The translations under genes were made by a program, and so were the position numbers. Below the pieces are notes generated by a model, which searched no databases, was not told where the DNA came from, and saw nothing but the letters and a program-made list of their open reading frames with translations. DNA of 61,161 nucleotides, filler included, from Hausera hauseri (Eukaryota): assembly GCA_046269625.1 (NCBI GenBank). It is 12 parts of 12 records of this genome, joined end to end, with 100 filler letters (N's around TTAATTAATTAA, not from the genome) between each part and the next. Parts side by side here need not be neighbours in the genome. Positions count along the whole stretch, not along the records: positions 41,862 to 46,166 come from JBJURY010646219.1; 11 more parts are not named here. The stretch is one strand, 5' to 3'. Positions 27,501 through 59,940 of this stretch are shown here, one piece after another (position 1 is the first letter of the stretch; every line of letters begins with the position of its first letter).

Positions 27501-29347
27501 AGCTGCCGATTTCCTACCCAGATCAGTCGGTTCGATCAATTTTTCGCCAATCTTCACTCAGATAAGGCTACAGGAAAATCACCCATCGCAAGATTTTCTC
27601 AAATCGTTAAAATCTCATCAGATAATCGACCGTGTGGCCTTAGATACTTCCAAACCAGGACAATACAAAATTATTCTTTGTCCATCTTTACACAAACAAG
27701 CATTCCATAATGTACATTCGTTACATCATCCTGGTGCCAAAGCAACTTTTCATTTACTTCAACGACAAACAGTGTGGCCAACCATGCGCTCCGATGTGCA
27801 AGCATGGGTTAAAGAGTGCGCGCCTTGTCAAAAATATAAAACAATAAAACATCTAAAACCTCCATTGTACCACTTTCCACGCACATCACGCTTTGAAACT
27901 GTATATATTGATATCGTCGGTCCTCTCTCAATAGACAACGGACACCAATTTATTCTGAACATGATGGACAGGGCCTCACGATGACCGGAAGCCATTCCAC
28001 TGCGGCGCACAAACACTGACACAATAGCCAATACTTTCATCCGTACGTGGATTAGTAGATTCGAATCCACTCGTTACATCATTACGGATCAAGGCTCTCA
28101 ATTCGAATCAAATCTGTTCAAATCTCTAGTCAACCGATTAGGTATAAGTCATATTCATACTACACCCTATCATCCAAAAGCAAATCGCCTGCTCGAACGT
28201 TTCCACCAAACCCTGAATACATCACTTCGAATCCTTGCGCAGTCAAACACCAATTAGACTACACTTCTATCGTTCGTCCTGCTTGGCTGGCGATACATTC
28301 CGTCCACTTCCACAGGATGTTCACCAACTGAAGCATTATTCGGAACTCCCGTACGGTCATTGTTCAAATTAATCGTTTTAGAGGAGACTCCTACAGACAA
28401 GAGGATACGAGCAGCTCAGGATCATTTTGTTACAATCAGCAAAGATTCGTTTTGAAGGCTCTTACACAATGACAAATCTTACATACCCGAAGACTTATAC
28501 TCAGCAAAGTTTGTATGGTTAAAAAACCAGACACCTTGCGGTTTCCACCCACAGTACTTAGGACCATATAAATTAATACAACTACACTCACATAATGATG
28601 TTATCCTCAAAGACGGAATAGAAGTTGTAATGCATTTCACTAATTTAAAACCAGTCTTTTACGTAGACGATACATCACCAACGGAATCATCAACCTCATT
28701 CTTCACACCTATTACCAACTCTACCTCGACTTTGATTCCCCAGTCCACCACATATCATCCCGCTACTACCGTCCCTGTGCCTACACTGTCACCTATCAAT
28801 TTCAAACCTACCTCCATCTTGACATTTCCATCTACCCCTACTTTGATCACTATTGCCGATCCGCACTCAACTGTTACACCTTCTCCTTTTTCTACACCAC
28901 CTTTCAATTAGTCACCTGCTCAAACTACAGCAAAAACGGGTATAATCTACCTACAGTCGTTTCTCCATTACCTTTTATATTAACTTCCCCAGCAAAAACA
29001 TCCAATAACACTGAAACTGAATTTTTTTAATAAACCCTACAAGCGGCCGACACTACAGTGAAGGTATGTCTCAAATCCGTTACTTTCAGTAACTATAGCA
29101 GAGAATTAAACAACGAAGGAGTACAACGCCTCGTACGCACAAAAACTCATTAGACAAATTTTGTTTGTCCTTAGAACTTTCTTTCAGTCTTTTCTTTTAA
29201 GTTCTCAACTCAGCTACTGGGGGTATTGTAGTGCTACTACTGTTATTTTGATTTTATTTCCTGCATTCAACAGGAGTAGCAACAATGTTATTATGACATA
29301 GTAACTTCGTGGTTTTCAAAACTGTATTGTCATTGTATGGAGTTTTT
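24560..29347 (+). mobile_element. Near full-length degenerate Gypsy (CsRn1-like) element
   Basis: Candidate PBS TGGTATCAGA at 24568, gag with double CHCC, FLIDTGA protease, YIDDILV RT, RNase H/IN ORF 27073-27984 (HH-CC, IDIVGP, TDQG, ERFH), and G-rich tract plus TG LTR start near 29218-29230. Confidence 0.94.
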
Positions 29348-36005: not shown

Positions 36006-36605
36006 TATGGGTTTGAGATTTGCAACGGCGGTTTTCAAATAAAAGACATTGTCGCTGCTTTTAAGCCGAATCATGACTTTAACACCGGGCAGTAGGTATT
36101 TCGGCTGATCGAAAAAGTCAAAGTACAGCGGTACACACATTGTAAGTACTTCTGATTCTGCCACCCATGCCTGACGGTTTGCCGGAGTGGCGTCATATCC
36201 GATGATTTTCGTCAAGTGAGTCGTTTTCCTCTCAGTATTGTAATTCAGAGCCGTTTCAATGAGTGCTTTGATACTGTATAGACTGATGTTGTCTTCGATT
36301 TTGACATTGTTCAGTCAGTGAAGCCTCCTGGAACAGTGTGAGGAAAAAGTAATTGGCTGATGTGACAATGTCTGTTGCAGGAGAACCGTTGACGAGTCCT
36401 TTTTAACAAGGACTTTTACATAGAGTAACGTATCGTTTAAATCCAGGTATTCATTGTCCGATACCATAATGTTGAATTGAATGTCAATGTTATTGTTCGT
36501 TGAAAACGAATCAACGGGGTAGATTTCTTCAAATGCCGCATTGTCAATAATAACTTGTGGCGCGCCTTTATCAAATATACACAATTCAGATATTTCAGAT
36601 GCCAT
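36006..36605 (-). pseudogene. Polinton major capsid protein, N-terminal half
   Basis: SELCIFD..PQV.I...EEIYP...IQFNI..EYLDLNDTLLYVKV, and PLYFDFFDQPKYLLPGVKVMIRL. Confidence 0.9.
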
Positions 36606-36616
36606 TTGTCTATCAA

Positions 36617-36982
36617 TCAATCGAAAATCTTACGATGGCGACGTTTGCTTATAGCTGATGAGCTCGATGATGCTCTACGGCGTTTTCTCATCATCAAGCC
36701 ACTGAAAAGAAATTGTTTTTTGACCGATTCAACGACTCCCGGTGTCGAGTTTTTTATTTCTAACAAGGCGTGTTCCTTCATAGATGGTAAAATCAATTTG
36801 TTTTCATATAGTACGTCCTGTGCTTTTTTTTCTGTCACGGTTCCAATACGCTTCAACACCGGAAATTCTAAATGTGCCAATGTACGCAACCATCCAGAGC
36901 CATACTGTGTACCAACGAAATGCGACAGTTCACCGCCCTGCTTGGGTTTACTGCAAATGGAAACGAGTTCGGAATCAATCAT
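36617..36982 (-). CDS. Small Polinton virion core-type protein upstream of the major capsid gene
   Basis: QGG..FVGTQYGSGWLRTL..PVLK motif and a basic KRRR..KRRHRKIF tail. Conserved position between the penton and MCP genes. Confidence 0.7.
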   Translation of the reverse strand: MIDSELVSICSKPKQGGELSHFVGTQYGSGWLRTLAHLEFPVLKRIGTVTEKKAQDVLYENKLILPSMKEHALLEIKNSTPGVVESVKKQFLFSGLMMRKRRRASSSSSAISKRRHRKIFD

Positions 36983-36989
36983 GTTGGAT

Positions 36990-38057
36990 TCGACGGAAAT
37001 GAAGAGTTAGACTGGTTGTGATACCGTACGAAAATTCAATAAGTTAGCCCGCGTCTCATCGGATATTCTCTTCAACATTGTTTATAGATGTAGATGCCAC
37101 AGGTAGGTACATTGGATTATTGAGTTTGACAATGACATTGTCGCCAGCAATATACTTGCTGCTATCCGAATAAATTGCATGGAGTAGCGGTACACGTACT
37201 CCACCGACCAAAATTGGTTCGGTGATATTCACGTAAACGTACATTTGACTTAGTCCAGTTTTCAGTTTGGGTTTAAGTGTTGCAACATTTGCCGCTGCTG
37301 TCTTCGTATTCGATGCCTCAAACCGCTGTTTTTCAAAACCCAATACCATGGTCAAAGCTTTGTCCAACGAAATGCCGACAATATCCTTAGCCAGTTCAAA
37401 TTTAATGTACGCACTTGCATCTAATTCGAAAACTTTAAATATCGCCTTGTACTTTTGATTTGAAAAAACTTTTTGACAGAAATGTGCTAAAGATTTGCAA
37501 TAGACATTGTCTCCAATCGATACGTATGACGTTGACACCCTTTCTACTGTATAGGTAAATTTCACCGTTGTCTAATAATATACGGGACTTAATCTTGGAC
37601 CAACTACACATTCATTTTTAATATGTTTACCTTTGTACTCTGTATTTTCGAACCCAAATTTCTGCGCCATCTCAGAGGACTCAAAGGTAACAGTAAATTC
37701 AAAATTTGTCATAAAATGTAAGTTTTGATCTAAAATAAAAACACCGATTTTGCCGTGTGAACCGTAATTTGCTTCGGTCGTGCAAATGGCCGATTCTCCA
37801 ACTGTTATTTTATTGCTAGTAAGTATCAGAAGACAAGAATGTGTTTTGGTTTCAGTAACAGTCGTGTTGTACATTATTTTCATACAACTTTTCAATGTCA
37901 CCGGTGCGTAGGGGAACTTAAATTCCGTCAGTGCAACCTCCCATTGTCTAGCAGATAAACACAAAGGATTGTTCCAATCTACAACGTATTCAATGGCTGA
38001 ATTGTTCGGACGAGTCGTCGAACAACTGTTGCTCGTCAACACCATGTAAATACTCAT
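36990..38057 (-). pseudogene. Minor capsid (penton-like) gene, copy B
   Basis: YMVLTSNS..PNN...WEVALTE N-terminus; MYVYVNITEPILVGGVRVPLL..NPMYLPV C-terminus. ORFs 37572-38057 and 37056-37565 are in frame across one TAG. Confidence 0.85.
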
Positions 38058-38069
38058 GATTTCGATAAT

Positions 38070-39142
38070 GATAATGATGATGGTGATACTGTTGACGCAG
38101 TTTGTTTACTATCGACGTTGACGACGTCGAAAATGTAACGTTAAGTGTGTCGTTGATCCGAACAGAAATTTAATGGGTTCCCAAAATTCATCAAACATAT
38201 ACACGGAAATACTGTTCACAATATTGAGAGACAGTGATAAGTACATGGGTCTGAACGTAATAACGCGAACAGTTTCACCCGATGATGTTTTGTACGTGTC
38301 AGAATCCAGTCTGAAGTCAGCAGTTGTTTACGTTCTCCACCAACGAGTACGGATTCGGTTAAGTTTGTTACAATGTTGATTCGGTGAAATGTTCCATAGA
38401 GTTGTGGTTGGTATTTGTCAACAATAAATCGTTCAACAATGCTTTGATAAAATTCATGTCGTGAAAAACCCAGATTCCGAGCCAATAATTAATCAAAGGC
38501 AAAATATGTAATATTGTCATGGAGTGTAATCGAAATATGACCATCTTCGTTTATTTCACATGTCTTTACGGCTAATGTAGTCGTTTTCTTGACGTATTCA
38601 CACAATTCCAGTTAGGTTTCCATTAGTAAATCGTGTGGTACAATACTTGAGCGGAAGACTGATTCTGACTTAGTTTACTTTACTATAATATCAGATTCCG
38701 CATCGGATAAAGAGTCCAATTTTTCACCAATTATAACATGTTCACCTATCCGTAGACGTTTTGAGTGTACATTGACTGGTTGAAAACCCCATGCCTGAGC
38801 ATCAACTATAGAATTAAACTGCATTTCCATGGGATTTCGATGCATTAGTTTCATACGGTAGTTTGAAAAATCAACATAAACCGAGAAATGTCGCGAATAA
38901 TTGCGAAGAGTATATCGGTTATTGTGTCGGATTGTCCGCAAAGGACTTGAAATAGGGTACGTTTCTTGTCGGGTAAAGTAAATACCACTGTTTTGACGTA
39001 TTGTCATTGGTGAAAATGTAAATTTGAATTCCGTCAAAGCCACTTCCCAGGCTCTCTGTGCAATGGTAAACTGTTTAACGGTATTGTCATGTTGTGATAA
39101 TGATCTGTTAATATCAAGTACAAAGCAAATGCTGCTGCTCAT
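38070..39142 (-). pseudogene. Minor capsid (penton-like) gene, copy A
   Basis: WEVALTEFKF near the N-terminus and TNLTESVLVGGERKQLL near the C-terminus, paralogous to copy B. Confidence 0.75.
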
Positions 39143-40190
39143 TGAATCTGTGATGCAAAAATCCAACTCGATGCAGTGTATCCGTGCCTCTTGATGAGAT
39201 ATTGTTCATTCGAACCTTTGCCACGTGAACGTAGAATTTCTCAAATACTTTATACATCGGGTTTCTCGGGCAGTACCTGCAGTTTCTGTTTGTAGAATTT
39301 ACCGCGTATTTCCTCACCGTTTTTATCCTGTAAAACGTACATGACAGGTATTTGTTTTGTGTTGATTGCCGAAATGCGGGAAACCTTGTCGCTCCAGTTC
39401 TGATTGAAATTCTTAATGAATGGTGTAATACTTATTTTCAAAATGCGTACGTAAGCACCGATTTTATATTTTGGGTGTTTAATTGCTCGTTGTCGGTTTT
39501 TATAAAGTCACATGTCCAAATCATCGATTACGTCAACCGGACGCATTCCGTTGATTCCACGGTGTGTCGAGTAATTATGTACATGAATAATATCCGGCAG
39601 GACATCTACACAGCGTTTGTTGCCTTGCTTCGTAAAGAATTTATTTAGACGACAACGCAATGTTCGATTAAATCGTTCAACGAGTACAGCCTTGTATTGG
39701 AAAACACCGAGTAGTGATTTACGCCGAACCGTTTCAAGACAGCTGCAACGTGGGCGTTGTAGTATTCCTTACCCAAATCCGTTTGTAAATGTTTCCAAAG
39801 CTGTTGTTGTTGCTGAATCAGTGTCTGAACAGCGTCGGCAATCTCTTTACCGGATTTAGGTTTCACGGCAATTGCACGTGCAAAACGACTAAACACATCA
39901 ACGCATGTCAGCACGTACCGATACCTACGGTTGATGCTGGCGTATGGAATCATTTCCATCAGATCCATTTGCCATACGTTATTTACACCGAAAGCACGGT
40001 ATGCACGAGTTGGAAACCGCCTTCTTATCGGTTTGTTTAGGCTGTATGCTGTTTCCCGAGCCAACGTTGGGTTTGTCACCCAGTCTGTTTGACAGTCTTT
40101 GCCAGTTTGTCGACGCCAGTATAGCTGACGGGATGACGCGGATCGAACCACACGTCGCTCATCGTTGCCCTCGGTGTTGTTGACTATGTC
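39140..40190 (-). pseudogene. Polinton retroviral-like integrase with C-terminal chromodomain-like segment
   Basis: AYSLNKPIRRRFP, WQMDL, YVLTCVDVFSRFA, LQTDLGKEYYN, VERFNRTL, GEEIRGKFY. Frameshifted. Confidence 0.93.
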
Positions 40191-40310
40191 GTTTTCATTA
40201 GCATTACAGCAATTAGAAAGAAACGTTGATGAAAGATTCGGTAAACTGGGACTAAATGATGAAAACCATGCACTCATGTCGCTACATCATCATATACTTA
40301 TCGTCATTGT

Positions 40311-40640
40311 TTATACTATGCTGCAAAACCAGAGTCCGCCCAATAATAATGTGACAACCGGTAGAATTGCACCAAGGAATCCGCCATCTTGCTGGTATAT
40401 GAATTCTCGTTTTAGTCGTTTACTACGAGCGTTGGCAAGGCCAATGAGCCGTTTTCGATACTTTAGTAAATTCCGCTTTCCACTACCAATGTCAACGTGA
40501 CCCACAACGATAATGTATAAAATTTCCATCAAATCGTCTACTACAAATTGCGGAAATGATCGCAGCATGTTTCGCTTATGTCTCGTAGGTGCCTTGAGCA
40601 AAGCAATAAAGTACGGCTGACTACCTTTGAATATCGCATT
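40311..40640 (-). CDS. Small conserved Polinton virion protein ending in Q.GGFL amphipathic helix
   Basis: LMEI..IV.G.V.I...LLKYRKRL..LA...KR..QQDGGFLGAILP. Located between the ATPase and integrase genes. Confidence 0.72.
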   Translation of the reverse strand, partial: NAIFKGSQPYFIALLKAPTRHKRNMLRSFPQFVVDDLMEILYIIVVGHVDIGSGKRNLLKYRKRLIGLANARSKRLKREFIYQQDGGFLGAILPVVTLLLGGLWFCSIV

Positions 40641-40868
40641 TTTTTTCTTTTTGGACGTATTGATGCTGATGAGACGTAGTTGTCTATAACCGTTGCCACT
40701 GTGACGGTAATTTGCGTCTAGTTGTTGTTCAACGAAGCACAGAATTGATTAATCGCTTGACTGTAGCGGCGCTTCGTTTTTATACACGTTTCTTGACGCT
40801 GGACACCCGCTTGGTAGGTTTACGTTTAAGAATTGTTTTTCGGAAATTCTTCATTTTTACTACTATCA

Positions 40869-41500
40869 TCACCATGTCGATTTTCGAATTTGCTTATAGA
40901 CATACACGCTTTTCGGATTGAAATTATCTGTTTGTATACGCATGTCATCTGAAAATTGTTGTATAAAGTCAATAAGCAGATACCCGTGTGGCTTGATCGT
41001 AGCATCACGATATGCATCGATTAAATAGGCCCGGTTGTGAGGAAATGCTGATCGTGCTACGGGAGTTGGATCACGGGGATTTTTGAACAGTACCAAACAG
41101 TATACATTTAGATTTCGTGCTGGATGCTGTCCATCTGAATGGAACATGTTTCGCGTAATGAAAATTACCGTTACACTACGGTGTCGTGCAATCTTAATGA
41201 ACATATTATTGAAGTCGGTTTGTTTGGCGGCCTGTTTAAATAAATCGTCAATAACAATAATTTCACCGTGTCTTAAACATTCAGACCATTTCTATTACCG
41301 TTATCGATTTTAATTTACAAAATTCTTGATGTGTCAGACCGGAATCTCCACCACTGGAACCCTGATACCTGTAAATGTGATTGAACCGTGGTGAATGGGA
41401 TATGTTGTGGTATTTCTGCAATAGCTTACAAACAAGGTGTGTTTTACCACTTTCATTTGGGCCTACATACTGGAAAATTGCATTATTCTGCAGCATTATG
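40869..41500 (-). pseudogene. FtsK/HerA-like (A32-type) DNA packaging ATPase
   Basis: Walker A GPNESGKT, Walker B IIVIDDL, ARHR.VTVIFI, LFKNPRD, PHGYLLID. Confidence 0.92.
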
Positions 41501-42420
41501 TTAATAAGATACGCTTCGTCACGCGTTTTTGTTTATATTCACGCCATACAGATATATAAATATTGCTACAGTATGAACACTGTTTCCATAATGTTAGCCA
41601 ATATCAACTATCAGGGACATGTTACAGAGTGGATTAACGCATTACCATTTAATTAATGGAAGCCGAGGCAATATGTCCACAAATATCCACTGGATTTTAC
41701 ATGTATTATATTTCAATCGGGAAAGTGTCGTATTATGAGTTTTCTCAAACCAATCACAAATNNNNNNNNNNNNNNNNNNNNNNNNNNNNNNNNNNNNNNN
41801 NNNNNTTAATTAATTAANNNNNNNNNNNNNNNNNNNNNNNNNNNNNNNNNNNNNNNNNNNNCAATCAAAAGATACAATGTAAGTATTAAAAAAGAAAAAT
41901 ATTACAAAAATAAAGCCGAAGTTGAAGGAATATACAGTAAGAAGGATGATAATACAGTATCATTAAATAGAAAATTAAGTTAGTCAAAGTTCATAGCTGG
42001 ATCACAATGTCACTGGAACGCAATTCTGATAACTGATCTTCTGTCTGGATTCCATAGAGATTCTCCAATATATAATCGTTTGAGGATCAGTACATAATCA
42101 TCCGAAGGTTTGCTTTGTAAGTATCGTTGAGTATTAAGGGTTTTCCTGCCTTGGCTTAGGGATGAGGATAAGATCCATCTGAATTGAAATAGGTTTCATG
42201 GTGACAATAGTTTCGTCATCTAATTCTTTGAGAATTTCTGATTGGTATCTGATACCAGCCATATGTAGTGTTTGATATTGTGAACTTTTATATATTATAG
42301 CCACAAGTTTTCCAAAGTCGGGATTTGTATACAACTGTTTTTAGTTGTAATTTTTGATTTTGGCTGATGTACATAAAATACATTTACTGTTCTAGTTTTT
42401 CCTCCGTATAAAAGAACTGA

Positions 42421-44004
42421 TCATTTTTTTCCAATCTGTTGAATTTCTCGTTGTTCTTTCTCTAGTTTCTGCATTATCATATCAGTTTGTTTCTTTATTT
42501 GATCGAACACACTTGGTGTATTACTTTGTATGACTTCTTGTTTATACTCAAGATGATATTTCTCTGGTATTTTTTGAAACGAACCGTTGTGGACTAGGTT
42601 ATTTGGTGGTGATGTCCATTCCAGTGTTAACTTTTCATTGGAACATTTTTCGGTGATGAGAACGTGAATTCGCATGATTAGCTGTAACACAGATTCAGCT
42701 TGCTTAGGAAAATGTTCATCAATTCCGTATACTTGGGGTAATTGAGTGAGATTGACTTTTTGTAGTCCCATCTCATGAAATCGATCCTTTGTATTGGATA
42801 AAGCCAATAAGTCAATTATTCCATGCAGAACTTCGATAGGAATTCGTAGTGCTTTCAATAAGGCTACAGTGTTAACCGATATTATCGTATATCCAAATAG
42901 GTATTTGATTATTTCTTGACGAACAGTTTCTTCATCTTCTGCCTGCATCATAAGAGCTAATGTTATTCCGTGGTGATGCTCATTAGTATTAGATATCCTT
43001 GTTCTAGGATTACTAAAGGCATGATAAATTAACAACTTTTTCTCGTCTGCGATTGTGATTTCGATTGGTACTGGGTTACCTTTAACTCCATACGCAAACG
43101 ATGCTGCAAGATACCTATAATTGACAACTGTGGTTAGTTGAAAATTATTGGTATTTTGAATATCTGGTAATGTATGAAACAATGGTGATTGCAGTCCGAT
43201 TAGCATATCCTCTTTGGAGACTATTTCAAATGCTAATACTGCCGGTGTAGTAATTATTCTGAATCGAATAGGAGTTCTCATTGCTAAGTGAGAGATTTCT
43301 ATAGTGGCGTAGGCAGATTTGATTGCTTTATCCTTGTTACTGGAGGAATAATTGTCATTGCCAGAAACAAATTGTATTTGTCCTTGAGCAATGTGTATAT
43401 AAAGGAAGTCGTATCGATCTTGTATTTTTAGCAATTGTTGCAGACTGATAGTGTAGTGTGGTTTTTCCATTGATATTATCCGGAAACTGCGATTGTGGCA
43501 TGTTGATTCTTTGAGTTGATTATCCAGAAACTTGGCTTCTGGAAAAAATATATCTGGATTTTGCTCTGAGAATTGTAAAATAGTTTTATAGAACTTGGAA
43601 GAGAATCGATTTTTTGGTCCTTCGTGTAGGACTATATGTTTTTGTAGTAACTCTTCCCAAGTTTTGTTTTTGATTTTTTCTTCTCGGCCTTCAGCCAGAT
43701 TCTTATTCATATTTGTTTTTAATTCTTGATATTTCTGCTTCTTTTCTGATGGTATTTCTGAGAAATCTGGTGGTGGTCTTCTTATTTCAACAACTGATTT
43801 TAGTGGTTTTGGTAAAATTGAAGGAACTGATTGTGGCTGATATTGTAATATTCCACATACCATTGGTGGTCCAAATGATGGATTTGAAAATCGTAATTCT
43901 TGGCTGGGTGGTATAACCCTTCGTTTAGGGTTAGGGACCACAGTTTGTACTGATGCATCCGAATCGGAACCGGAATCGTCCAGATCAATTTGGAAATGTG
44001 CCAT
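42421..44004 (-). CDS. 527-aa Gypsy cargo ORF (3' part of the 728-codon frame) with putative inactive retropepsin-like and DEDDh exonuclease-like domains
   Basis: Uninterrupted frame with an internal ATG at 44004 (MAHFQIDLDDSGSDSD). Domain calls are by eye only. Confidence 0.6.
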   Translation of the reverse strand: MAHFQIDLDDSGSDSDASVQTVVPNPKRRVIPPSQELRFSNPSFGPPMVCGILQYQPQSVPSILPKPLKSVVEIRRPPPDFSEIPSEKKQKYQELKTNMNKNLAEGREEKIKNKTWEELLQKHIVLHEGPKNRFSSKFYKTILQFSEQNPDIFFPEAKFLDNQLKESTCHNRSFRIISMEKPHYTISLQQLLKIQDRYDFLYIHIAQGQIQFVSGNDNYSSSNKDKAIKSAYATIEISHLAMRTPIRFRIITTPAVLAFEIVSKEDMLIGLQSPLFHTLPDIQNTNNFQLTTVVNYRYLAASFAYGVKGNPVPIEITIADEKKLLIYHAFSNPRTRISNTNEHHHGITLALMMQAEDEETVRQEIIKYLFGYTIISVNTVALLKALRIPIEVLHGIIDLLALSNTKDRFHEMGLQKVNLTQLPQVYGIDEHFPKQAESVLQLIMRIHVLITEKCSNEKLTLEWTSPPNNLVHNGSFQKIPEKYHLEYKQEVIQSNTPSVFDQIKKQTDMIMQKLEKEQREIQQIGKK

Positions 44005-45470
44005 TTTGTCGAATTGTATTCTAAAAGAAAATATTAACGTTTGATTTCGTTTTTGTACGAAATCAGTTTGTGTGGGTAGATAAATTTTTATTGGTTGTTC
44101 ATATGAACCTTCAACAACTGGTTGGTTAAAAAGATTTCTAGTTTGGACATGTAAGCTTTCTACATCTTTAGAGATCGTAGTCAGCTTTAGCTCACTTACG
44201 CTTAATTTTGTCAATTCCACAGTTATCGTAGCAACATTTGTTACTTGTAAACAACACATAACAAACATTGTCGTTATTAAGGGTTGCATTTTTGTATTGA
44301 TTAAGTTTAACTGCATATGACTTGTATTTCTTTTATTTACGTCAGTTTGTCTCGTAAAGATCTGCAATTGTTTTTTCTGGTTCTTTATTATATTTCTTTT
44401 TCTCTTCCATACAAGTAACTGTCGTACAGTAAATGGTGTTGTGATAATTAACAAAAATGTCAATATTACTATAAACGGTATTATAGTTTTTAACATATTT
44501 GGTTCATATATTGTATCATCTGTATATGTCTTTGTTAGATATATTGGTTGGTATGGTATGTTTTTAGATGAGTATATTTTAGTTTGAGTCCTAATTTTGT
44601 TATGCAAGGTTTGTTTACCTTCTTGTGTAAAAATTACTAAATACTCTTCATCAGGTTAAAGTTCAGAACATCTTGTAGTTCTTTCTTTTTCTTTAATTAC
44701 CGAATAAATGATATGATATTTTCCTATGCATGATATCTGTATCGGTTGAGTAGCTGGAGTTAGGGTTTTGAACTCGATGTACGCATCTTTAATTATGTTT
44801 GAAACTGATGGTATGTTCTGTAGGACTTGTGGCTTAACCTGCAAGACTTTTTTACTTACTATAATTGTAATTTCGATTCTAGTTATTGGACTAGTTGTTA
44901 GAACTGAAATTTCGAAAAATTGTGGAACTGACATTTGAATATGGTAGTGTAGGGCCTTTTACCTGACGTGTGAATAAGAAATTTCGGGAAATAATAAGTG
45001 ATTTGTAAGTCAACATCTGAATTTAGCGTGGGTCTTTTTAGATCGATTTTATCTATAAGTCTAGGTTCCGTATCTTTATCTTGAGTAAAGAAAAAAGATT
45101 GACCTATCTTTTCTATATGTACTTGTCTGGCTATCGGCTCAAATTCATTTTGTTTAGCCAATATACCATCCACTGGAAGGTAATAAAGTTGTAATATGCA
45201 TACTTCATTCATAAGAGGTACCTTACATTGTTTTGTAAGTAACCATATATCTTGTTTACTAGGTGGGATCATTAAATATCCTATTTTTGAAAATACAGGT
45301 TCTCCTTCGAGTAGACAATCTATCAAATAAGGTTCATATTTCCAACTAATTTTGATTTTTAAATTTAGGTTTGCATTTACTGGTTCGGTTACTAACGTTT
45401 GACCTACTGTTGATAAAATGAATCCCAAAATTACTACTAAAAATAGTAATTCTTCTAGACTACAGGCTGG
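44005..45470 (-). pseudogene. Env-like / type-I membrane protein region following integrase
   Basis: Signal-like LLFLVVILGFILSTVG, about 300-aa beta-rich region, TM IIPFIVILTFLLIITTPFTV followed by KRKR. One frameshift (about 44935) and one TAA (44656). Confidence 0.55.
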
Positions 45471-45499
45471 TTTAATAGTAGTCTTTTTATATGATCTAA

Positions 45500-46166
45500 G
45501 CGAATATTTAGGTTTATAATGAGGTGTAGGTTCTTTCGGTTCTTTAGTTACTCTCTGTACGGATACACACTCTATTCTGGTTTTCTTGCCAGTACCTTTT
45601 TCTATAAAGACATTTTCTGGAGTCGATTTTACTACCAGATACGGTCCTTTACCAGTTCTAGTTAATTTTAAGGATTTGCCTGGTTTGGCAACGGGATAAT
45701 GTATCATTACTTTATCGCCTGGTTGAAAGTTATGAGGGTTACTCTTTTTATCATATTGTTCCTTATAAGTTGCTTTGTATTCGCGTATGGCATATTTAGC
45801 TCTAATCCAATAATTAGCAAGACTATGTACAACGCCTGCATGAATAACTTCTTCATCCGTATTGATAGGAATGTCCTTTTCTGGCAACAGCTGTATATCT
45901 AATGGTAGAAGAGGTTTTCTGCCATAAAGCAATTCAAACGGTGTATACTTACTAGATGTCGGTGTGGTAGCTATTGCGAATTGAACTACTTTTAAATGTT
46001 CATCCCAATCCTTCTGGGATTTATCTATCATTGTTGACAGGAGACACTGGACGGTGTAGTTTAATCGTTCTACTTTTCCATTACATTGTGGATGATATGC
46101 TGTGGTTAGCAATCGCTTAGTTTGACATATGTCAGTTATTTCTCTTAGTAATTGGCTTCTAAAATT
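45500..46166 (-). mobile_element. Ty3/Gypsy integrase core and GPY region (third family)
   Basis: TTAYHPQCNGKVERLN, DWDEHL, TPFELLYGRKP, FQPGDKV, KGPYLV. Confidence 0.95.
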
Positions 46167-46266: not shown

Positions 46267-49200
46267 CTGATGATTTTTTGTTCCGATACGCTCCTGGTCG
46301 ACTGTTGTTCCATGACCATTTTCATAGGCTTGGAGAAAGTTTTTAAACTGTAAATCGATTTGTTTCAGATTTACGCCTTTGCATTTCAATACGGACTTGC
46401 TTTGCGTTTTCAACGCGTAACATTTCGGTCTTAGGAAAATTCCTTCTGTACTCGATACTGCCTTTGCTTTCATCTTTAAACTTGTCTATAACAGCCGAGA
46501 AACGAGTGTAATAAAGAGGGTCGCTAGTATCGTAATTCAACGTGTCCAACTCTTCATTAGAAATCATTGCTGGCAAGAGTTGTGATCTTAAATCAACTCC
46601 ACGGCACTCAAGGAAAAACTATCCGTGTAACCAGCAATGATATTTAATTCACAATTAAACTGGTGTTTATATTTATCCAGTTTGATGTAATTAAGCTCAT
46701 ACATCCGTAGCTTGGAAAGATCAAGTACGGCCTGACCATGTATGAGGGCCTATCTAGTGTAACTGTCTTTATCGACGAGAACAGCAACCAGATCATCAGC
46801 AATAATGATACTTTCTTTGAACTGGGCTTTTCTGGCATATGTTACAAGCCTCTTTGCATTGTTACAAAACCTCAAATTGGACCGTTTCATCAGATTTTCC
46901 ACTGTTTTCCATATAAACTGTTACTTTTGAGCTTAAAAAGTCCTTTCAAAAGCATTTTTAGCAGCAGCCCTCTTTGCTATATTAAGGTTGATGTAGTCCT
47001 TAAAGACAACCTTGATCAAATTCAACGGCCCCATGTACCTTGTCAACCACAGCACCTAGCTTGATATATAGCTGCAAAAGCCTATAATGGAAAACATAGT
47101 TGGACTTTCGCTCATGTGTTAGCAGCAATTTCTTTACTCGTGAATCAGGAGGGCATTGGCTGATTGGAGCTAAAAACAGTTGGTCAAACTTATCGCGCTC
47201 ATCAGCCGAAATGCTCAAATTAACTTCGAAAACGAGACCACTTTTTTGTGTAACAGTGTCGACAAAAGGCAACTGTGAAATCAGGCTGTTTAATCTATCC
47301 TCATTGTAAATCCAAACCAAATTTGCAAATGTCAAAGGTTTCGATAAAGCCCAGCCGTACAAATTATTCACATCTATATACAAGATAGTGGTGCTTTCAT
47401 CGGCGGTAACCCTATGTTTATTTACAAAAGTCATGCCACCGCGAATACCGGATTGGAAAAAACTATACATTTCAGGATCCTGAATGAGCTCAATACGATA
47501 CGGACTCGTTTTTAGTGCAGTTGCACAAGATAATCCTGGAATAGACACGAAATTAACCGCTTCTAAGCCATCCTCCAACTTAACCCGCTTTCTGAACCGT
47601 TCAAAAATATTACCTAACAAGTATACATCTAGTTTCACGTATACTAACATGTAATCTAAAAGCGAGTTACATTTATATCTTGATCAGGTAAGTTGCGCCT
47701 CCTGATAATTGCTGTCACTAACACCATCCAATTTCGGTGGTAATTCAAAAATCGACTGCAAGTCAGTAAACGATTTGGCTGCAGTGTATGGAAAAACGCC
47801 TTTTCTCTTAATAATATCAGTTGGAAAGGCTGTTTCGGTGAAGTCTAAATTAGAGGCCAGTGTCTTCAGTGAAGCAGGTAAAAACTGAAGCGTGTCCGAA
47901 AAGCCAATTGAAACAGACTTTTTACCTGAACATCGTATCATTGCCTGCATAGTGAGGAATTTTTCAGTTGTTTGTGGAATGACACTTATTTGCCAACTGC
48001 CGAATTTAATGCATGCTTTAAAATATGATGAACATCATATCCACGCAAATTATGGAATATAACAGATAAATTGTACCTAATCTGTCGAGCCAAGTTACGT
48101 TTACTACATGTTGGGCCTAGGAATTTACCCGTAACACTACAGTGATCTCGAACAAATTGAGAACCATTTTCATGACAGTTAACAATATATGACGTTCTTA
48201 AACCGAAACCATTCAGGTGATGTTAGTGGGATCATTGTTTTTTTGCATTTTTGTACTAGAGGGAAACCAAGCTTTTCACAATTTACTCTAAACAAGTCAG
48301 AAACTGAACGATAGCATTTTCACCAACAAACTGCCTATATTGAATATTTGTTGATGAAACTAGCAAAAGACCGGCTACAGCAGGCAAATGAATATGCTTG
48401 ACTTTATCGTCAGGACACAGAACAGATTCAAAGTCAGCATATGACGAAAGGAGGACTTATAGATTTGGACCAGTCCTTAAATTCACAAAACTTGTTTTCA
48501 GGTATTCTGTACAAAGTTGTGCAATTGGAAGACATGCACATTGGTAAATGCTTAGCATAAGCAGTGTCAAGCCTAAATCCATACAAACATTTCTCACACC
48601 AATAATTACATTGAATTCTCATACCATTAGACCGTATGTTCAACAACCGATTAAAATGAGGAATTGCAACATAATAGAACTTATCGTCATTTCCTAAAAT
48701 CATCAGTTTCACTACAGTACGATTCGGATTTTTGCTTCTATACAAAATATCAACGAATGGATTTTTCACAATATCCTCATCAAAATCCACATTTTCCTCA
48801 TCGTGAAACAAGAAGACATTAATTGACAACTGTGGATTCTGCCTTTCAAATTTACTTATGTTGCGTATTTTCATAGGCATATCTTCTGCAGAATACTTCA
48901 ACTCCCTTAAATAAGGAATATAATTACTAACTCTGTTTTTATGCCTATTATTGTCGATAGACGAATATTTGGTCACTGCGAGAAGAGTACAAGAAACAAA
49001 CTATCCCCATTTTGCACGTTAATAACTGCCTTTGAAAAATTTAAAGCGTCAGTTGTTGGTAGATAGGATTTTCCAGATAGATAGGGTAGTGGCTTGTTCT
49101 AACTATATGAAAACAGTATTTCAGAATTTTCACTACCTTTCAACCACTACCAAATTCGGCAATATTTTTAACTTGCTCACGCAAAGTATCAGCTACAGAT

Positions 49201-52120: not shown

Positions 52121-54827
52121 TCAGTCAGATTTAATACCATACCAACTCATCCCTGAAGCTGTAAAGAAATGAGCCGGATACAAAGCATGGCTATTCATTT
52201 TAACATCCCTAAAACTCTCAAAGACATCTGTCAGCAGCAGCACGTCCGTCTTGAGGTATATGTCGCTGTATTCCCCTAATGTTCGACATTGGAATGCATG
52301 CCAAACGTTCTGGGCATGCTGGTAGTCAGCACCACTGATATCGCAATCAGAGAGAACATTGTAAAAGTCCTTGACCGACAATGAGGTCTCATCAAGTGTT
52401 TCCCATGAAGTTATGCAGTCATAAGGAAACATGCCTTTCCTCTTGACGAGGTCAAATGCCGTGGGGAAGAACCGCTTTGTCTCCTTGAGTTCTTTTGCAG
52501 CGAGGGTCATCACTAAACTGTCCAGTGACGAGCTCATTAAGCGGAAACTGTCTATGAAACGAAATCTGATGCGGCCTACAGGCTTGGTGAAAGTGATGTA
52601 TTTTTCCTCACTGTTTGGGATCACATCTATATTTTCATCAATGTTGCCTAATTCTCGGACTATGAAATGGGAATCATAGCCACTGAGATTATGAACACTA
52701 CAGACACATATGTACACGTTTTGCAGCGATGATTGAAGTTATTGCATGCTGCCCCTCGATATACACATGTAAAGTTGCAATGATCCTTGACTTTATGATT
52801 ATTCTTGGTGAAGGACTTGTCGCACAAGTAACATGTTGTTGCTCTGCGCCATTCTTCAGCTTGTTTCTACGACATGCTCATATTATCCTTATGCTGCTGA
52901 AGCATGTTTTTAAGCTTATGAGCCATGTATTCAAGTCGTTTCATAAAATGTGCTGCTTCACCTGGACGTCTAAGTCGATATGGTTCACTGTCCAATACTT
53001 TGGCATACATGCAATATGACGAGAGTTCATGATATTGGTATGACGTTTTGCTGCGATTTTGAAAACTGGTAGTGCAGCTGTGAATTGGCCGGAGAATAGC
53101 CTCAAAGTCGCTATAGATAACTATTGGAACCTTGATCTTTTACTCGAACTCCTTGAATTTAATGTAGTCTTCCCTGGTAAATTCTGGCTTGATACAATAA
53201 TTGTTGTTGCAATACATTTTGTACTCTGCAAGCTTGTCCACAGCTGAATCACCACTGAAATGGGAAAAGCATCGTTTACATATTTCTAATCTTTCCTTAT
53301 GTTTCGTATTTATGGATCTGACAAGACGCTCAAAGTTTTTGATCCAAACATAATGTTTCTTTTCTCCGTCTTCTAGTAGGAGCAGATCCCTATGATCTTC
53401 CAATTCAGTATCATATATATGCAGGGGATAAAATTTGTCCACCTCGACCAATCCAATGATGTTGATGGATATGTTGTTGTTTCGGCTGAACTTCTTAATT
53501 TCATCTAAGGATGGAGGGAACTTAATACATTGGAAGTCATAGTTGTGCTTCTGATCATTATATAGCTAAACTCGATCTTCTGCATGTTTTTGATCACGTA
53601 CGAGTTTACATAAAATGGCATACATAAAATACATGTTGTCATTATTATGGACACTAACACGTGCCTTTTTATTAGCGATCCATTTCCGAAGCTGAATATA
53701 AGGACTGTCCCGCATTGGAGAGTACTTGTGAACATACACAAGCAATCTCCTGATGGTGCCAGAGTCCATCCGTTCTTCTTATCCTGACTCTGATCGGCTT
53801 CATGGATCATCTTTGCATGCCCTTCATTCAGCTATTCTACTATATTAGTGGCTTCAAAAATGGGTCGATTTCTGGTCTTGAAGGCCCTTTCGGACTCTTC
53901 GCCATCAACATTAAAGTATATGGCCCCAAGTTTCATATTATCCTTAATGGCCTTGAGCTCAGCTATGTTTTCCTGGAGAATCCCCTCTATTTCTTCATCT
54001 GTTTACTCCAGAAATTCCTTAATGGTTGTTTGACCAGTTGCATCAATGACATATTTGCGGCATTTCCTCTTTAATGTTGGAGCATCAACTGGCCGCTGTC
54101 TTTGACTCTTTGATGGAGCCGCTACGCCTGATGCGCCTGATGCGCTTGATGCGCGTTTTAATCCTGCATCTGGCTGTACTGCAGGCTGTGGTACTGCAAA
54201 TTGTAGTACTGCAGGCTGTGGTACTGAAGGCTGTAGTACTGCAGGCTGTGTTGCAACTGGCTTATGTTCATTAAAGATGATATTCTTTGACTTTGACGCG
54301 AAGTCAGTCAAATGATGTTTGTGATCTTCATAAAACTGTATGTATTCTCCATCACATACAGCTTCACATCATGGGTATATTAATAAATGATCCTATTGAC
54401 TTTGTGTCCATAATAGCTCTTCATGGTATTGTGGTAATTTTGAGGGTTGTGTATTGTACATGTGCAATACACATATGAACTGCATCTTTGATTTTCCTTT
54501 AAAGTCGTTATTGGTATATTGGTATTGAATATTTGTTTTTCCGACTTAGTGAAAAAAATCAAATGCTGCTTATGGACATTGTAAAAGTCTTTATAATTGA
54601 TTTGGCACACTGCCACACATGTAGGACATATATAATAATAAACCCTGTTGTACATAATACAGTGTCAATTTTCAGGCTTGGGGATTTGAGCCAACCATTC
54701 GCTGTGAAGTTTGCACATCTAAAAATCAACCAATTATTTTTGGAGTACAATTAAAAAACTCAACATTCGTTGAAGTGATTTTGGAAATAATGAAATATAT
54801 TGCCATATCACCATGTATTGCCTCAGA
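52121..54827 (-). pseudogene. polB: Polinton pPolB pseudogene, N-terminal half (same family as 29448-32860)
   Basis: HNLSGYDSHFI, RFIDSFRLMSSSLDSLV, RKGMFPYD, YLKTDVLLLTDVFESFR. Truncated at about 52135. Confidence 0.93.
54165..54252 (-). repeat. 15-bp coding minisatellite (QPAV-like pentapeptides) in the pPolB N-terminal extension
   Basis: GCAGGCTGTGGTACT-like units repeated about 6 times. Confidence 0.8.
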
Positions 54828-55464: not shown

Positions 55465-58400
55465 TCTTGAAAAAATGGCCGAATTAGCCGATAAAACATA
55501 TGATGTTCTACACTTACATTCCCCACTAGTCGTTTCGGCGGCAGTTGCTCCTAACGATATTCAGTCCAATAACATATCAATAAAACAACAACTCAATTAG
55601 CTACGTGCTGAAAATATTGCACTACAATCAACAATTAACAATATAAACAACGACATAAACAAGTTTCCCCTGTCCAAGAGAAGAGATTTTGTTGCTGACC
55701 GCGCTCCTCCTGAATCTAGAAACAGGTCACCATCGCCCGCGCGGTCGTCAATCTGCTATTATCATTGCAGATTTAATAAGAATTCCAAGAAATGCTGCCT
55801 AAGGTTCAAATTTTATAACAAAAGTTTTTCTTCAGATACCGTTCATTGCATTTACCACGCAAAGTTTAAAAATCAAGCCCGTAAATGCATTTCAGGCCGC
55901 ACTTTCAAACCAGACACTAACGACGGACGAACTACCTTTTCTTCTAGTAGTCGTCCTAGTACATTTTTTCAGAAAAATAAATTTGCCGCCAGAGATCACG
56001 GCAAACTCTGGCAAAGGCACTACTTCACTTCTTGAATGCCGACACGCCTCTTTTTCTGTCTTTACTATAAAGGCTGCAATCACCGCTCCTACAACGCAAT
56101 CCGTTGACTTCCTCCTTGATACAGGTGCAGAGATTTCTTTATTGCCCCAAACCTTTCCTGTCCAAAATTCGATATTTAAAATCAAATCTTTATACACCGC
56201 TTCGGATCAACCGCTGCACATTTTTGGCATGGCTAAACTATCTTTTATCCTACCAAAATTTCCTTCACTTTTCTACCGGACATTCACAGTTGTTAGTGTC
56301 CTGACGGCAATTTCAGATTCTGATTTTTTATCATATTATAATTTATTGGTTGACTGCAGTCAACGATATTCGAGGAGCGGCATCACTGGCAGCATTACTG
56401 AGCATGACAATAGCATTTCGACTACCGTGCAGTCAATCGAGAAACGGAGGTCAAATTGGGGAAAATCAATAAATAATTCGAAGTTCCATAACTATAATTC
56501 AATTCGTAAATTTTTAAATAATAATATTGATATGCAATCGAGGTTCAATGTCGATAATTGTGGTTCTGTCACTAATGTTCATTCACACAAAGAAATCACT
56601 TCATCCAACACCATTTTCAATTCGACCATCATACACCAAATACCACTCGATTGCACATCACAAAATAATTCACAAATCGCATCCGCTGATACCCAAGCTA
56701 CTTCACCATCATCACCGAATCTATCACAGTTGTCTACAACTTTACAGCAATTCGTTACCACATCATGTTTACGCGTACTTAAAAAAGATCGTTCGTTTAC
56801 TTCTACAAACAGCACTGTACATCACGTAATTACACAACATCAACGACCAATACGTCAAAAGGTGCGAACACTGTTACAGCGTCGAAGACAGGCTGTAAAA
56901 GCCGAATTTCTTGAACTAGAACGCTCCGGCATTGTACGCCGTTCCAAATCTCCTTGGTCGTCACCTTTACACGTCGAACAAAAAAGGACGGTACTTTTAG
57001 ACTATGCGGTGACTACCGACAGTTAAACAACTTGACAATCATGGATGCGTACCCCCAGTTACTAATCAAGGACATCCTGCATCGCCTTACTTTAACTACC
57101 ATTTACTCGACCATCGATTTGGTCAAAGCATACCACCAAATACCGGTGGCATCCGAAGTTATAGAAAAAACTGCTGTCACTACTCCTTTTGGTCTCAACG
57201 AGTACCTGTTTATGCCTTTCGGTTTGCGAAATGCCGCACAGACCTTTCAGCGACATATTAACTCAATTCTCTCAGATTTTCCGTTTGCGCACCATTATAT
57301 TGATGATATTCTGATCGTTTCGTCTTCGGTCAAACAACACGAGGAACATCTTCGCGCAACATTCCAACGCCCTGGCCATCATAATCTCCAAGTCCATTTC
57401 GACAAATGCCATTTTTTCGAAAAGCGCATCAACTTTCTAGGCCACGTTATTTCACCAGACGGCCACTCTCCTTAACCAGACCGAGTTGAAGCCCTTAAAA
57501 ATATCCAATTACCAAGTACGACCACCGAAATGCGCAGCTTCCATGGTACACTACACTTTGTACATAAATATGTATCATATTGCTCCGAATTTATAGCACC
57601 ATTTGCACACTTAAGCGGTGGCAAAAAACATCAGCCAATCCAGTGGACACCTGAATTCGTAGACAAATTTGATAAGTTACGCGGAGGAATTAAGACCGTC
57701 GACATTCTCGATTTCCCCAAGCCTGATGCAGAACTAATCCTTACTACAGACGCTTCAACCACTGCGGTAGGTGCTGTACTCCACCAGATCTACAAAGGAG
57801 AAAATCAACCTCTAGAATTTTTCTCTCTCAAGCTAATATCCACTGAGACCAGGTATTCAACGTTTGATGGAGAGTTATTGGCCATCGTTTTTGCTTTAAA
57901 GCATTTCTCCCACCTACTTGTCGCTCGCCATTTTACTATAAAAACCGATCACAAACCTTTACTTAACATTATGGCTATGAAACATTGTTCCACACGCCAA
58001 GAAAGACAGATATCAAACTTGTTTACATTTAACTTCGACATAAAACATATTAATGGGTTTAATAATTTAGTTGCCGATTTTTTATCTATGTCGGTTAGTT
58101 CGATTAATTTTTCACCAATTTTACGCAAGCTCAACTTCAACGAAAACAGCCACCTCAAGACATGCTTAATTCTTTCAGGTCTTGCAAAATCGTTAACAAT
58201 GCGGCTTTAGACACTTCCAAACCAGGTCATTCCATAATAATTCTCTCACCATCATTGCAAAGGCAAGCAATAAATAGCGTACATTCGCTACACCACCCTG
58301 GTGCTAAAGCCACTTTTCGTTTACTCCATCGACAAGTAATATGGCAGTCAATGCGTTCTGATGTGCAGGCATGGGTTAAGGAGTGTGTGGCTTGCCAAAA

Positions 58401-59940
58401 ATACACAAAAACTAAGCATTTAAAGCCATCACTGTTCCACTTTGCCTGCACATCGCGTTTTGATTCCATGCATATTGACGTCGTCGGCTTTCCTCCTCCA
58501 GACAACGGTCATCAATTCATTCTCACTATGATGGACAGTTCCTCGCGATGGCCAGAAGCCATTTTTCTGCGGAGCACGAAAACCGATACCATAGCTGACG
58601 TTTTCATTCGTACAAGGATTAGCAGGTTTGGAACACCTCGCTTTATCATCACAGACCAGGGTCCACACTTTGAATCCAACCTGTTCATATCCCTTGTTAA
58701 CCGATTGGGGATCCATCACATACATACTATGCCTTGTCACCCCCAATCGAACAACATTGAAAAAGTCACTAAGAATTCTTGCAGAGTCTAACACGAGTTG
58801 GACAAATCTTCTTCAGTTTGTTTTGCTTGGCTGGTGGAACACTCCGTCTACTTTTGTAGCATGCTCACCTACTGAAGCCTTATTCGGAGCTTCTGTACGA
58901 TCATTATTCCAACTAACTGCCCTAGACGACACTCCTACAGGTGAAACGATATGGGCGGCGCAAAATCACTTTGTTACGCTCAGCAAAGATTCGTTCTGCA
59001 GGTTACTACATAAAGACAAAACATATTTACCCGAAGAATTGCATTCGGCAAAATTTGTATGGCTAAAGAATAAAACGCCATGAGGTTTCCAACCGCGGTA
59101 TCTGGGGCCTTATAAACTGATACAGCTGCATTCACATAATGCTATTATCTCTAAAGACGGCAAAGAGCTTACAGTACATATTACCAACTTAAAGCCCGTC
59201 TTCTTTGTACGCGACACTTCACCAATTGACACGTCAACCTATTTTCTCACTCACACCTTTCCTGCTGTTCCTTTATCTGTTACTACACCTGTTTCACCTC
59301 CTCCTTTTGCTCCTAGTTCTGCTTTATCATTTTCCACACCTCCTACTTTTATTCCTATCTTTCTTCCTTTCTTTACCATTCCCTCTGTCTCATTTTCTAC
59401 TTCTACTCTTTCGCCTAACACAATTCCAATTTCTACTTCAATTTTCGTCTCTTCTCCTTCATCCGACACTTCACCTTTTTTCACTCCTTCAATTTCTAAC
59501 ACTCTTGAATACCCTTAACCATACGTCTCCAACAATTTCCCTCCCTCCTTCACCCTTTTCTTCTTTTTGTTCTGACTAGTCTTTGCACGACACAAAACTC
59601 ACCACAAAATCTGACAATATTTTCCCCAACTTCAGACTCTGCACGCAAACACACCGCATAAAGACAAAACACGCAGCATCACCTCTAGCATTATAATAGG
59701 GAAAAATCAGTAGAAGGCACACAACGTTTTGTTCACACTAAGGCCAGCTAACAAAGATAGTTTTTCGTTTAGCAATTTTTTCTTTCCGTTTATTTTGATA
59801 TTTATAGCTTTCACTTTGCCACCGGGGTGATGTGGTGCCACGGCGGCCGGTGCCCTTTAGCCCATCTGGTTGGGCGCGGCCGGGCGTCCGCTGTCGCCTC
59901 GTCGGATCAATAGTCAGGTCCGACTCTCCGCATTGAAAAT
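55465..59940 (+). mobile_element. Degenerate Gypsy (CsRn1-like) element, gag 3' half to 3' LTR start
   Basis: Double CHCC, pseudoknot at 55982-56011, FLLDTGA, YIDDILI, LTTDAS, TDHKPL, IDVVG/TDQG, GPY, and G-rich tract then TGTGG at 59831. Confidence 0.95.

Follow-up and report, generated by a model that had tools for sequence, protein, structure and literature searches.

Two-metal DEDD catalysis requires the aspartate, glutamate and histidine residues of the motif. Some proteins have kept the fold without the chemistry while active relatives survive elsewhere. These include Maelstrom, which in metazoans has lost its DEDD residues and binds single-stranded RNA (as described in excerpts of PMC4408791), and EXD1 (in excerpts of PMC5408684); both are host proteins of the piRNA pathway. 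Retrotransposons have also captured such nucleases. The excerpted text of PMC5408684 describes an RNase D-like DEDDy exonuclease, with its motif intact (DEED), as the extra 3′ ORF (ORF3) of the bdelloid Juno and Vesta LTR elements and of Terminons. Likewise, large Gypsy elements of Phalaenopsis orchids carry an extra AlkB-type domain that is an active m6A demethylase, according to the excerpted part of PMC9289625. Burro and GYPSM1 are giant Gypsy elements of 25-30 kb in which gag, a ubiquitin-like domain and a mononegavirus-type fusion glycoprotein stand in frame before PR, followed by RT-RH-IN (PMC6431247, in excerpt). The section on Burro domains in that excerpt lists no DEDDh or AlkB cargo. 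Part of PMC13524379, whose main text contains neither "exonuclease" nor "DEDD", reports a gag-env-pol order in elements of nematodes, bryozoans and flatworms as well.

We analyzed a window of 61,161 nucleotides of Hausera hauseri DNA, which encodes a domain that resembles ISG20, ISG20L2, REX4 and SDN1 in fold, profile and motif spacing. Unlike these enzymes, it is the product of a retrotransposon, has an AlkB-like fold fused to it and has lost all five catalytic residues. Compared with the DEDDy ORF3 of Juno, Vesta and Terminons, the captured domain is DEDDh/ISG20-like, mostly dead and paired with AlkB. In contrast to Maelstrom and EXD1, it is transposon-encoded and has no visible ECHC zinc motif. 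Whereas the orchid enzyme is active, no metal-ligand set is conserved here, and a nuclease fold is attached. We considered whether "REXA" of PMC11848433 was the same module and rejected it as an unrelated domain. In the literature searched (the original Burro paper, Repbase entries and supplements aside), we found no description of DEDDh or AlkB-DEDDh cargo in Burro-like or gag-env-pol elements.

The DEDDh domain and its host element

On its own, the window protein produced no Pfam match at E ≤ 1, no PDB sequence match at E ≤ 10 and an empty word-indexed homologue search. A profile built from 50 catalytically dead copies in the same genome matched ISG20L2 (E = 1.2e-8), ISG20 (3.8e-7), SDN1 (1.1e-4) and the PolC exonuclease (0.0019), and one restricted to lineage A gave a weak PolC match alone (E = 0.018). 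We then turned to structure prediction. An AlphaFold model of positions 42514-43683 reached a pLDDT of 91.5 and a pTM of 0.88. Foldseek, the comparison with DnaQ-like exonucleases that the initial annotation had proposed, placed ISG20 first (E = 3.3e-7, TM 0.76 by target length, rmsd 2.6). VIA-align likewise returned human ISG20 as the best match for model residues 188-354 (Z = 17.0, rmsd 2.4 Å over 160 aligned residues), with the next at Z = 13.5. The alignment behind the model had 56 rows, including two intact-motif relatives; the dead-only profile serves as the control without them. RNase_T clusters in the ESM Atlas, at 0.85-0.87, are a lead only. Together with the alignment to the intact-motif relative P0010, these matches place the fold at 42622-43122 on the minus strand. 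At the level of a predicted model, they confirm that the 155-codon stretch is an ISG20/REX4-type DEDDh exonuclease domain with a DnaQ-like RNase H fold. The initial annotation had called a REX4/ISG20-like DEDDh fold at 42650-43115, and the call stands: all six motif pieces it quoted fall in one minus-strand frame inside the ORF, although the frame starts at 43113, not 43115.

The window consists of small contigs strung together by N runs and a stop-codon spacer, and the true neighborhood of the domain is 41862-46166 only. This contig (JBJURY010646219.1) is edged by artificial N/spacer joins and has no physical linkage to the other window contigs. Over its whole length (41862-46166, minus strand) it is the 3′ part of a decayed Burro-like Gypsy element, with 89.8% nucleotide identity over 4207 bases to its closest relative, L021. 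Read along the minus strand, the end of a Gypsy integrase is followed by a post-integrase region with a hydrophobic segment and then by the domain-bearing ORF (42421-44655). The integrase core and C-terminus, leading into the post-integrase region, lie at 44898-46166; the frame shifts near 44955 and runs into a stop at 44656-44658. A hydrophobic, likely transmembrane segment (44413-44484, minus strand) ends the region. Two more frameshifts, one near 42340 and one near 42150, and a second in-frame stop (42421-42423) make the window's own copy a broken relic. A public run matches 42338-42766, 42879-43014 and 43046-43255 with zero differences; it may be the source sample and hence is not independent.

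The other contigs of the window hold a hAT transposase with a BED finger, Polinton-like genes (integrase, ATPase and polB-like ORFs, assigned partly by eye) and unrelated Gypsy pol genes (5373-7411, 36504-41532, 46270-48034, 52121-52738, 26431-28344 and 55803-58791). No tRNA was found in the window.

Searching the genome with the domain returned at least 151 matches, a lower bound from 150 scored among 3635 candidates. L021, on contig C66660, is a 2851-codon frame that encodes a Monjiviricetes-type fusion glycoprotein, PR, RT, RNase H and integrase, and then the DEDDh domain. Such Gypsy pol domains in the frames of relatives bear out the retroelement setting that had been proposed from the window alone. 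In the copy adjoining L021, PR is preceded by gag, a ubiquitin-like domain and the glycoprotein. In relatives L041, L042 and L076, env lies in frame between gag and pol within a single polyprotein, a part that the window contig lacks, and in L041 the ubiquitin-like domain (residues 1081-1148) precedes env. No Pfam match to BIR, ankyrin or MATH domains was found in the two frames scanned. Element length, estimated from two neighboring copies, is ~17 kb, compared with 25-30 kb for Burro and GYPSM1. We regard the carriers as Burro-like gag-env-pol Gypsy elements, an assignment by layout. Contig C66660 (L021, L022 and L041) holds two head-to-tail copies, 93% identical over their content overlap, that apparently have one terminal repeat of ~1.3 kb in common. 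After the first copy we discern by eye what we take to be a purine tract, a ~1.3 kb TG...CA repeat-like stretch, a primer-site-like motif and a donor-like AG/GT.

Catalytic residues, relatives and selection

To place the catalytic residues, we aligned the window protein pairwise with P0010 (22% identity over 348 aa, E = 1e-14). At the D, E, D, H and D positions the window has Ala, Ser, Leu, Lys and Val (codon starts 43107, 43101, 42861, 42705 and 42690), just as expected from the earlier reading that the spacing is kept and the acidic catalytic residues are replaced. Whether the losses are fixed across copies had been raised as a check, and they very largely are. None of the five residues is present in 59 of 61 own-genome rows, and the other two rows have one each; the canonical D and E of ExoI, D of ExoII, and H and D of ExoIII occur in 0, 0, 2, 0 and 0 rows, respectively. 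This count omits same-contig duplicate loci and five truncated or frameshifted rows (L004, L006, L014, L039 and L064). Four residues, E208, P226, R227 and D250 (model numbering), are invariant across the dead copies. They are mostly common to active relatives and may be structural.

The 61 rows fall into at least four deep, well-supported lineages that are ~20% identical to one another. An exhaustive HMMER search added six distant relatives, and a wider profile one further dead relative, P0011. It is metagenomic relatives that supply the intact motif: D-E-D-H-D is complete in P0003, P0007 and P0010 (from L075), three of the eight tabulated outside proteins, and the first motif is absent in the other five (P0002, P0004, P0005, P0006 and P0011). 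P0003 clears the Pfam RNase_T cut-off and matches ISG20L2 (E = 6e-16), ISG20, SDN1 and PAN2. Used as a query against the H. hauseri genome, it recovers the same AlkB-DEDDh family over both domains, and none of the 95 scored matches (of 3529 candidates; 30 were fetched as loci) is an intact-motif copy. In L075 the intact nuclease is a separate ORF behind env-PR-RT-RH-IN. Given these intact-motif relatives, one of them at the same position behind pol, the window domain appears to be an inactivated captured enzyme. In L075 (2-9040 and 9207-9875), moreover, the polyprotein contains two protease-like stretches, and a coiled-coil-like ORF of 222 aa separates pol from the nuclease gene. Among viral contigs, no relative of P0010 was found. 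The dead AlkB-DEDDh relative P0002 bears a C-terminal RING finger.

In an RT tree that includes three other Gypsy RTs, the carriers group as a single clade, and the branching among the four lineages has no resolution. Our domain tree is a quick one and is unrooted because the outgroup search for cellular homologues returned P0003 and P0007 only. Monophyly of the dead lineages is not rejected (p-AU 0.30), which does not demonstrate a single origin of inactivation. Searched with PF00929, the genome yielded nothing beyond a bacterial-type dnaQ and an ERI-like exon. The dnaQ gene (L073:1480-2145) is AT-rich, which suggests symbiont or contaminant DNA in the assembly.

The dead domain is under purifying selection within lineages. 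Median omega for the nuclease core is 0.068 (0.019-0.156) in the 38 unsaturated pairs (dS 0.1-1.5, dN under 0.3) of 1431 from 54 sequences. When the dN filter is dropped (78 pairs, 44 sequences), saturation of dS between lineages raises the median to 0.71. Between the window and L021, omega is 0.08 in the nuclease domain, 0.10 in the AlkB part and 0.04 in the integrase, compared with 0.47 in the upstream linker. Choosing stop-free stretches for dN/dS biases omega downward, but not enough to explain values this low. Synonymous divergence between these two copies is uneven, with dS of 0.1-0.3 in the 5′ part (43200-46160) and 0.7-1.3 over the nuclease domain and tail (42424-43120), suggesting that one of them is a recombinant mosaic.

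Partner domains and expression signals

Upstream of the nuclease domain, positions 43207-43668 (minus strand) encode a predicted AlkB-like 2OG-Fe(II) dioxygenase fold, a double-stranded beta-helix that has the additions typical of AlkB. VIA-align superimposed model residues 6-159 on Ofd2 (Z = 11.0, rmsd 3.0, 135 aligned), and other AlkB-type proteins followed (ALKBH6, Z = 10.7; ALKBH7, 9.7; ALKBH5, 9.2), all at identities of only 6-12%. Across the 61 rows no His or Asp column reaches 85%, and the His-x-Asp/Glu...His triad is not conserved as judged by alignment rather than residue-level superposition. Lineage A and P0002-P0007 retain a single conserved His. On visual inspection, the AlkB metal triad is also missing from the relatives whose nuclease motif is intact. 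The predicted model thus has an AlkB-type fold without conserved metal ligands ahead of the nuclease.

The likely start of a stand-alone protein lies at 43671-44004 (minus strand), where Met 44004 is followed by an acidic Ser/Asp patch, a conserved basic motif at 43935 and a Pro-rich linker. The basic motif resembles a nuclear-localization signal. In a public run, the stretch that encodes it (43907-43941) has a summed depth of ~2170 per bin, compared with ~20 nearby, and is therefore common to many copies at the DNA level; besides encoding a peptide motif, it may act as a cis signal. At the other end, 41994-42423 (minus strand) is the broken remnant of a C-terminal domain of ~150 aa, interrupted by the stop at 42421-42423 and the frameshifts near 42340 and 42150. 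Its counterpart in lineage A (L002:2335-2802) is modeled at a pLDDT of 89. It has no solved-structure match (best Z = 2.8), which does not establish a new fold, and matched no ESM Atlas cluster.

Several features suggest how the unit might be expressed. A polypyrimidine tract and AG (44021-44036, minus strand; AG at 44022-44021) resemble a splice acceptor and end 16 bases before the Met codon. In lineage A, such a tract with YAG precedes the acidic N-terminus in 17 of 18 loci at 11/14 pyrimidines and in 15 of 18 at 12/14, against background rates in pol of 0.05 and 0.019 per 150 bases; the ATG that follows is in frame in those 15 loci. Read by hand, 9 of 13 full-length rows of another set, more decayed than the first, have the acceptor, and L075 has an acceptor-like site two bases before its ATG. 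In lineage B, 7 of 16 loci carry such a site 38 codons upstream of the conserved start of the domain, and no in-frame ATG lies close to it. Two public runs, both of contigs of unrecorded kind, showed no joint there, which is evidence neither way, and no retrocopied spliced form was found among 30 loci of 40 matches.

Other copies keep the domain in a longer frame. A stop-free frame common to the domain and the upstream hydrophobic segment is found in 25 of 51 loci (many of the others are too short or belong to lineage C), and in L021, L077 and L083 the domain is in frame with pol. In lineage C, the pol stop is TGA in 12 of 12 loci and is followed by CGG in 11 of them (L078:7415-7600, L080, L084-L093). 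A stop-free in-frame linker then runs into the AlkB-DEDDh ORF, with alignment gaps that are all multiples of three. Three hairpins in this stretch show double-sided changes in 7 of 25 pairs, the structure being derived from the same sequences. The type II readthrough signal is UGA-CGG with a 3′ stem-loop (PMC3159437, in excerpt), and programmed readthrough from pol into AlkB-DEDDh is likely in lineage C. From these signals we infer that the unit may be made both as a polyprotein tail and from a spliced subgenomic RNA. The initial annotation, right about the fold, its ISG20/REX4 affinity and the catalytic loss, had overlooked the splice and readthrough signals, as well as the AlkB-like partner, the intact relatives and the broken state of the copy.

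Possible functions of a dead two-domain unit

We favor, at about even confidence, the reading that an ISG20/REX4-type domain without catalysis, joined to an AlkB-like fold, is an accessory protein whose role would be to bind nucleic acid and to protect the element's RNA or act as its chaperone. Both folds derive from RNA-handling families. An ancestral element would have captured a working DEDDh nuclease beside an AlkB-like domain that already lacked its ligands. The nuclease may have lost its first motif early, because Ala/Ser-x-Asn/Ser is common to most dead lineages. Probably produced as a polyprotein tail and from spliced subgenomic RNA, the unit could use its two substrate clefts, one for an RNA 3′ end and one for a modified base, to hold RNA without acting on it. 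RNA held in this way would be shielded from host nucleases, m6A readers or small-RNA processing. RNA binding, shielding of RNA ends and suppression of silencing, the roles first suggested for the dead domain, are plausible by analogy with Maelstrom. Charge counts against an RNA-binding role: the median net charge of the dead domain is -1 in lineage A and +0.5 in lineage B, both near neutral, and +4 in lineages C and D, which are mildly basic only.

The neutral charge in the window's lineage would instead suit a decoy or adaptor acting on host proteins, a tentative but possible alternative. Here the dead unit would mimic a host enzyme of RNA decay or demethylation, or recruit ubiquitin machinery, and so blunt defense. 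Consistent with this, the protein opens with the motif that resembles a nuclear-localization signal, L041 has its ubiquitin-like domain, and P0002 is fused to a RING finger. In addition, Burro elements bear ubiquitin- and apoptosis-type host-manipulation domains, according to the excerpted text of PMC6431247. However, conservation lies in the core and the substrate-side loop instead of on an obvious new surface, as judged without coordinates.

The shared frames described above raise the further idea that the unit is structural, a part of the particle or the polyprotein that would resemble a matrix or scaffold and be anchored behind the post-integrase transmembrane segment. A frame open from the hydrophobic segment, or even from pol, into the domain would fit such a role, as would a lineage C frame kept across its likely readthrough stop. 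We nevertheless think it unlikely, since the nuclease of L075 is a separate ORF and every lineage inspected has an acceptor-like site just upstream, which suggests independent expression.

Could the domain still be an enzyme whose active site has been rearranged or borrowed? If an offset of one position is allowed, 15 of 61 rows have an acidic residue close to the second Asp site and 22 have one close to the last, and E208, invariant in the dead copies, is Ser in the intact relative P0003. On the other hand, all 61 rows lack an acidic residue both at the first D and E sites and at the positions next to them, none has a His near the His site, and two-metal catalysis needs just these residues. 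Retained activity is therefore very improbable. Finally, that the domain is a functionless vestige carried by the element, as the broken window copy might suggest, is hardly tenable and largely refuted by the selection signal, with an omega of ~0.07 within lineages and a fold kept across lineages that are ~20% identical.

Returning to the RNA-binding accessory protein, a bolder and distinctly doubtful version can be sketched. Two dead RNA enzymes would form a dedicated counter-defense protein, produced through regulated splicing and, in lineage C, also through programmed readthrough. It would grip the ends and the modified bases of the element's RNA, so that host RNA decay or piRNA processing could not act on them. 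Such a protein would be the transposon's counterpart of Maelstrom, extended by a third domain that has no matched fold.

With these results, the 3′ end of envelope-bearing giant retrotransposons, a very abundant class, gains an explanation that it had lacked. They also provide a natural active/dead pair of one captured nuclease at the same genomic position, which makes a switch from enzyme to binding module directly testable. To our knowledge, few transposon-encoded modulators of host RNA surveillance have been described in animals. A double pseudoenzyme that strong selection has preserved in deep lineages makes a good candidate for one.
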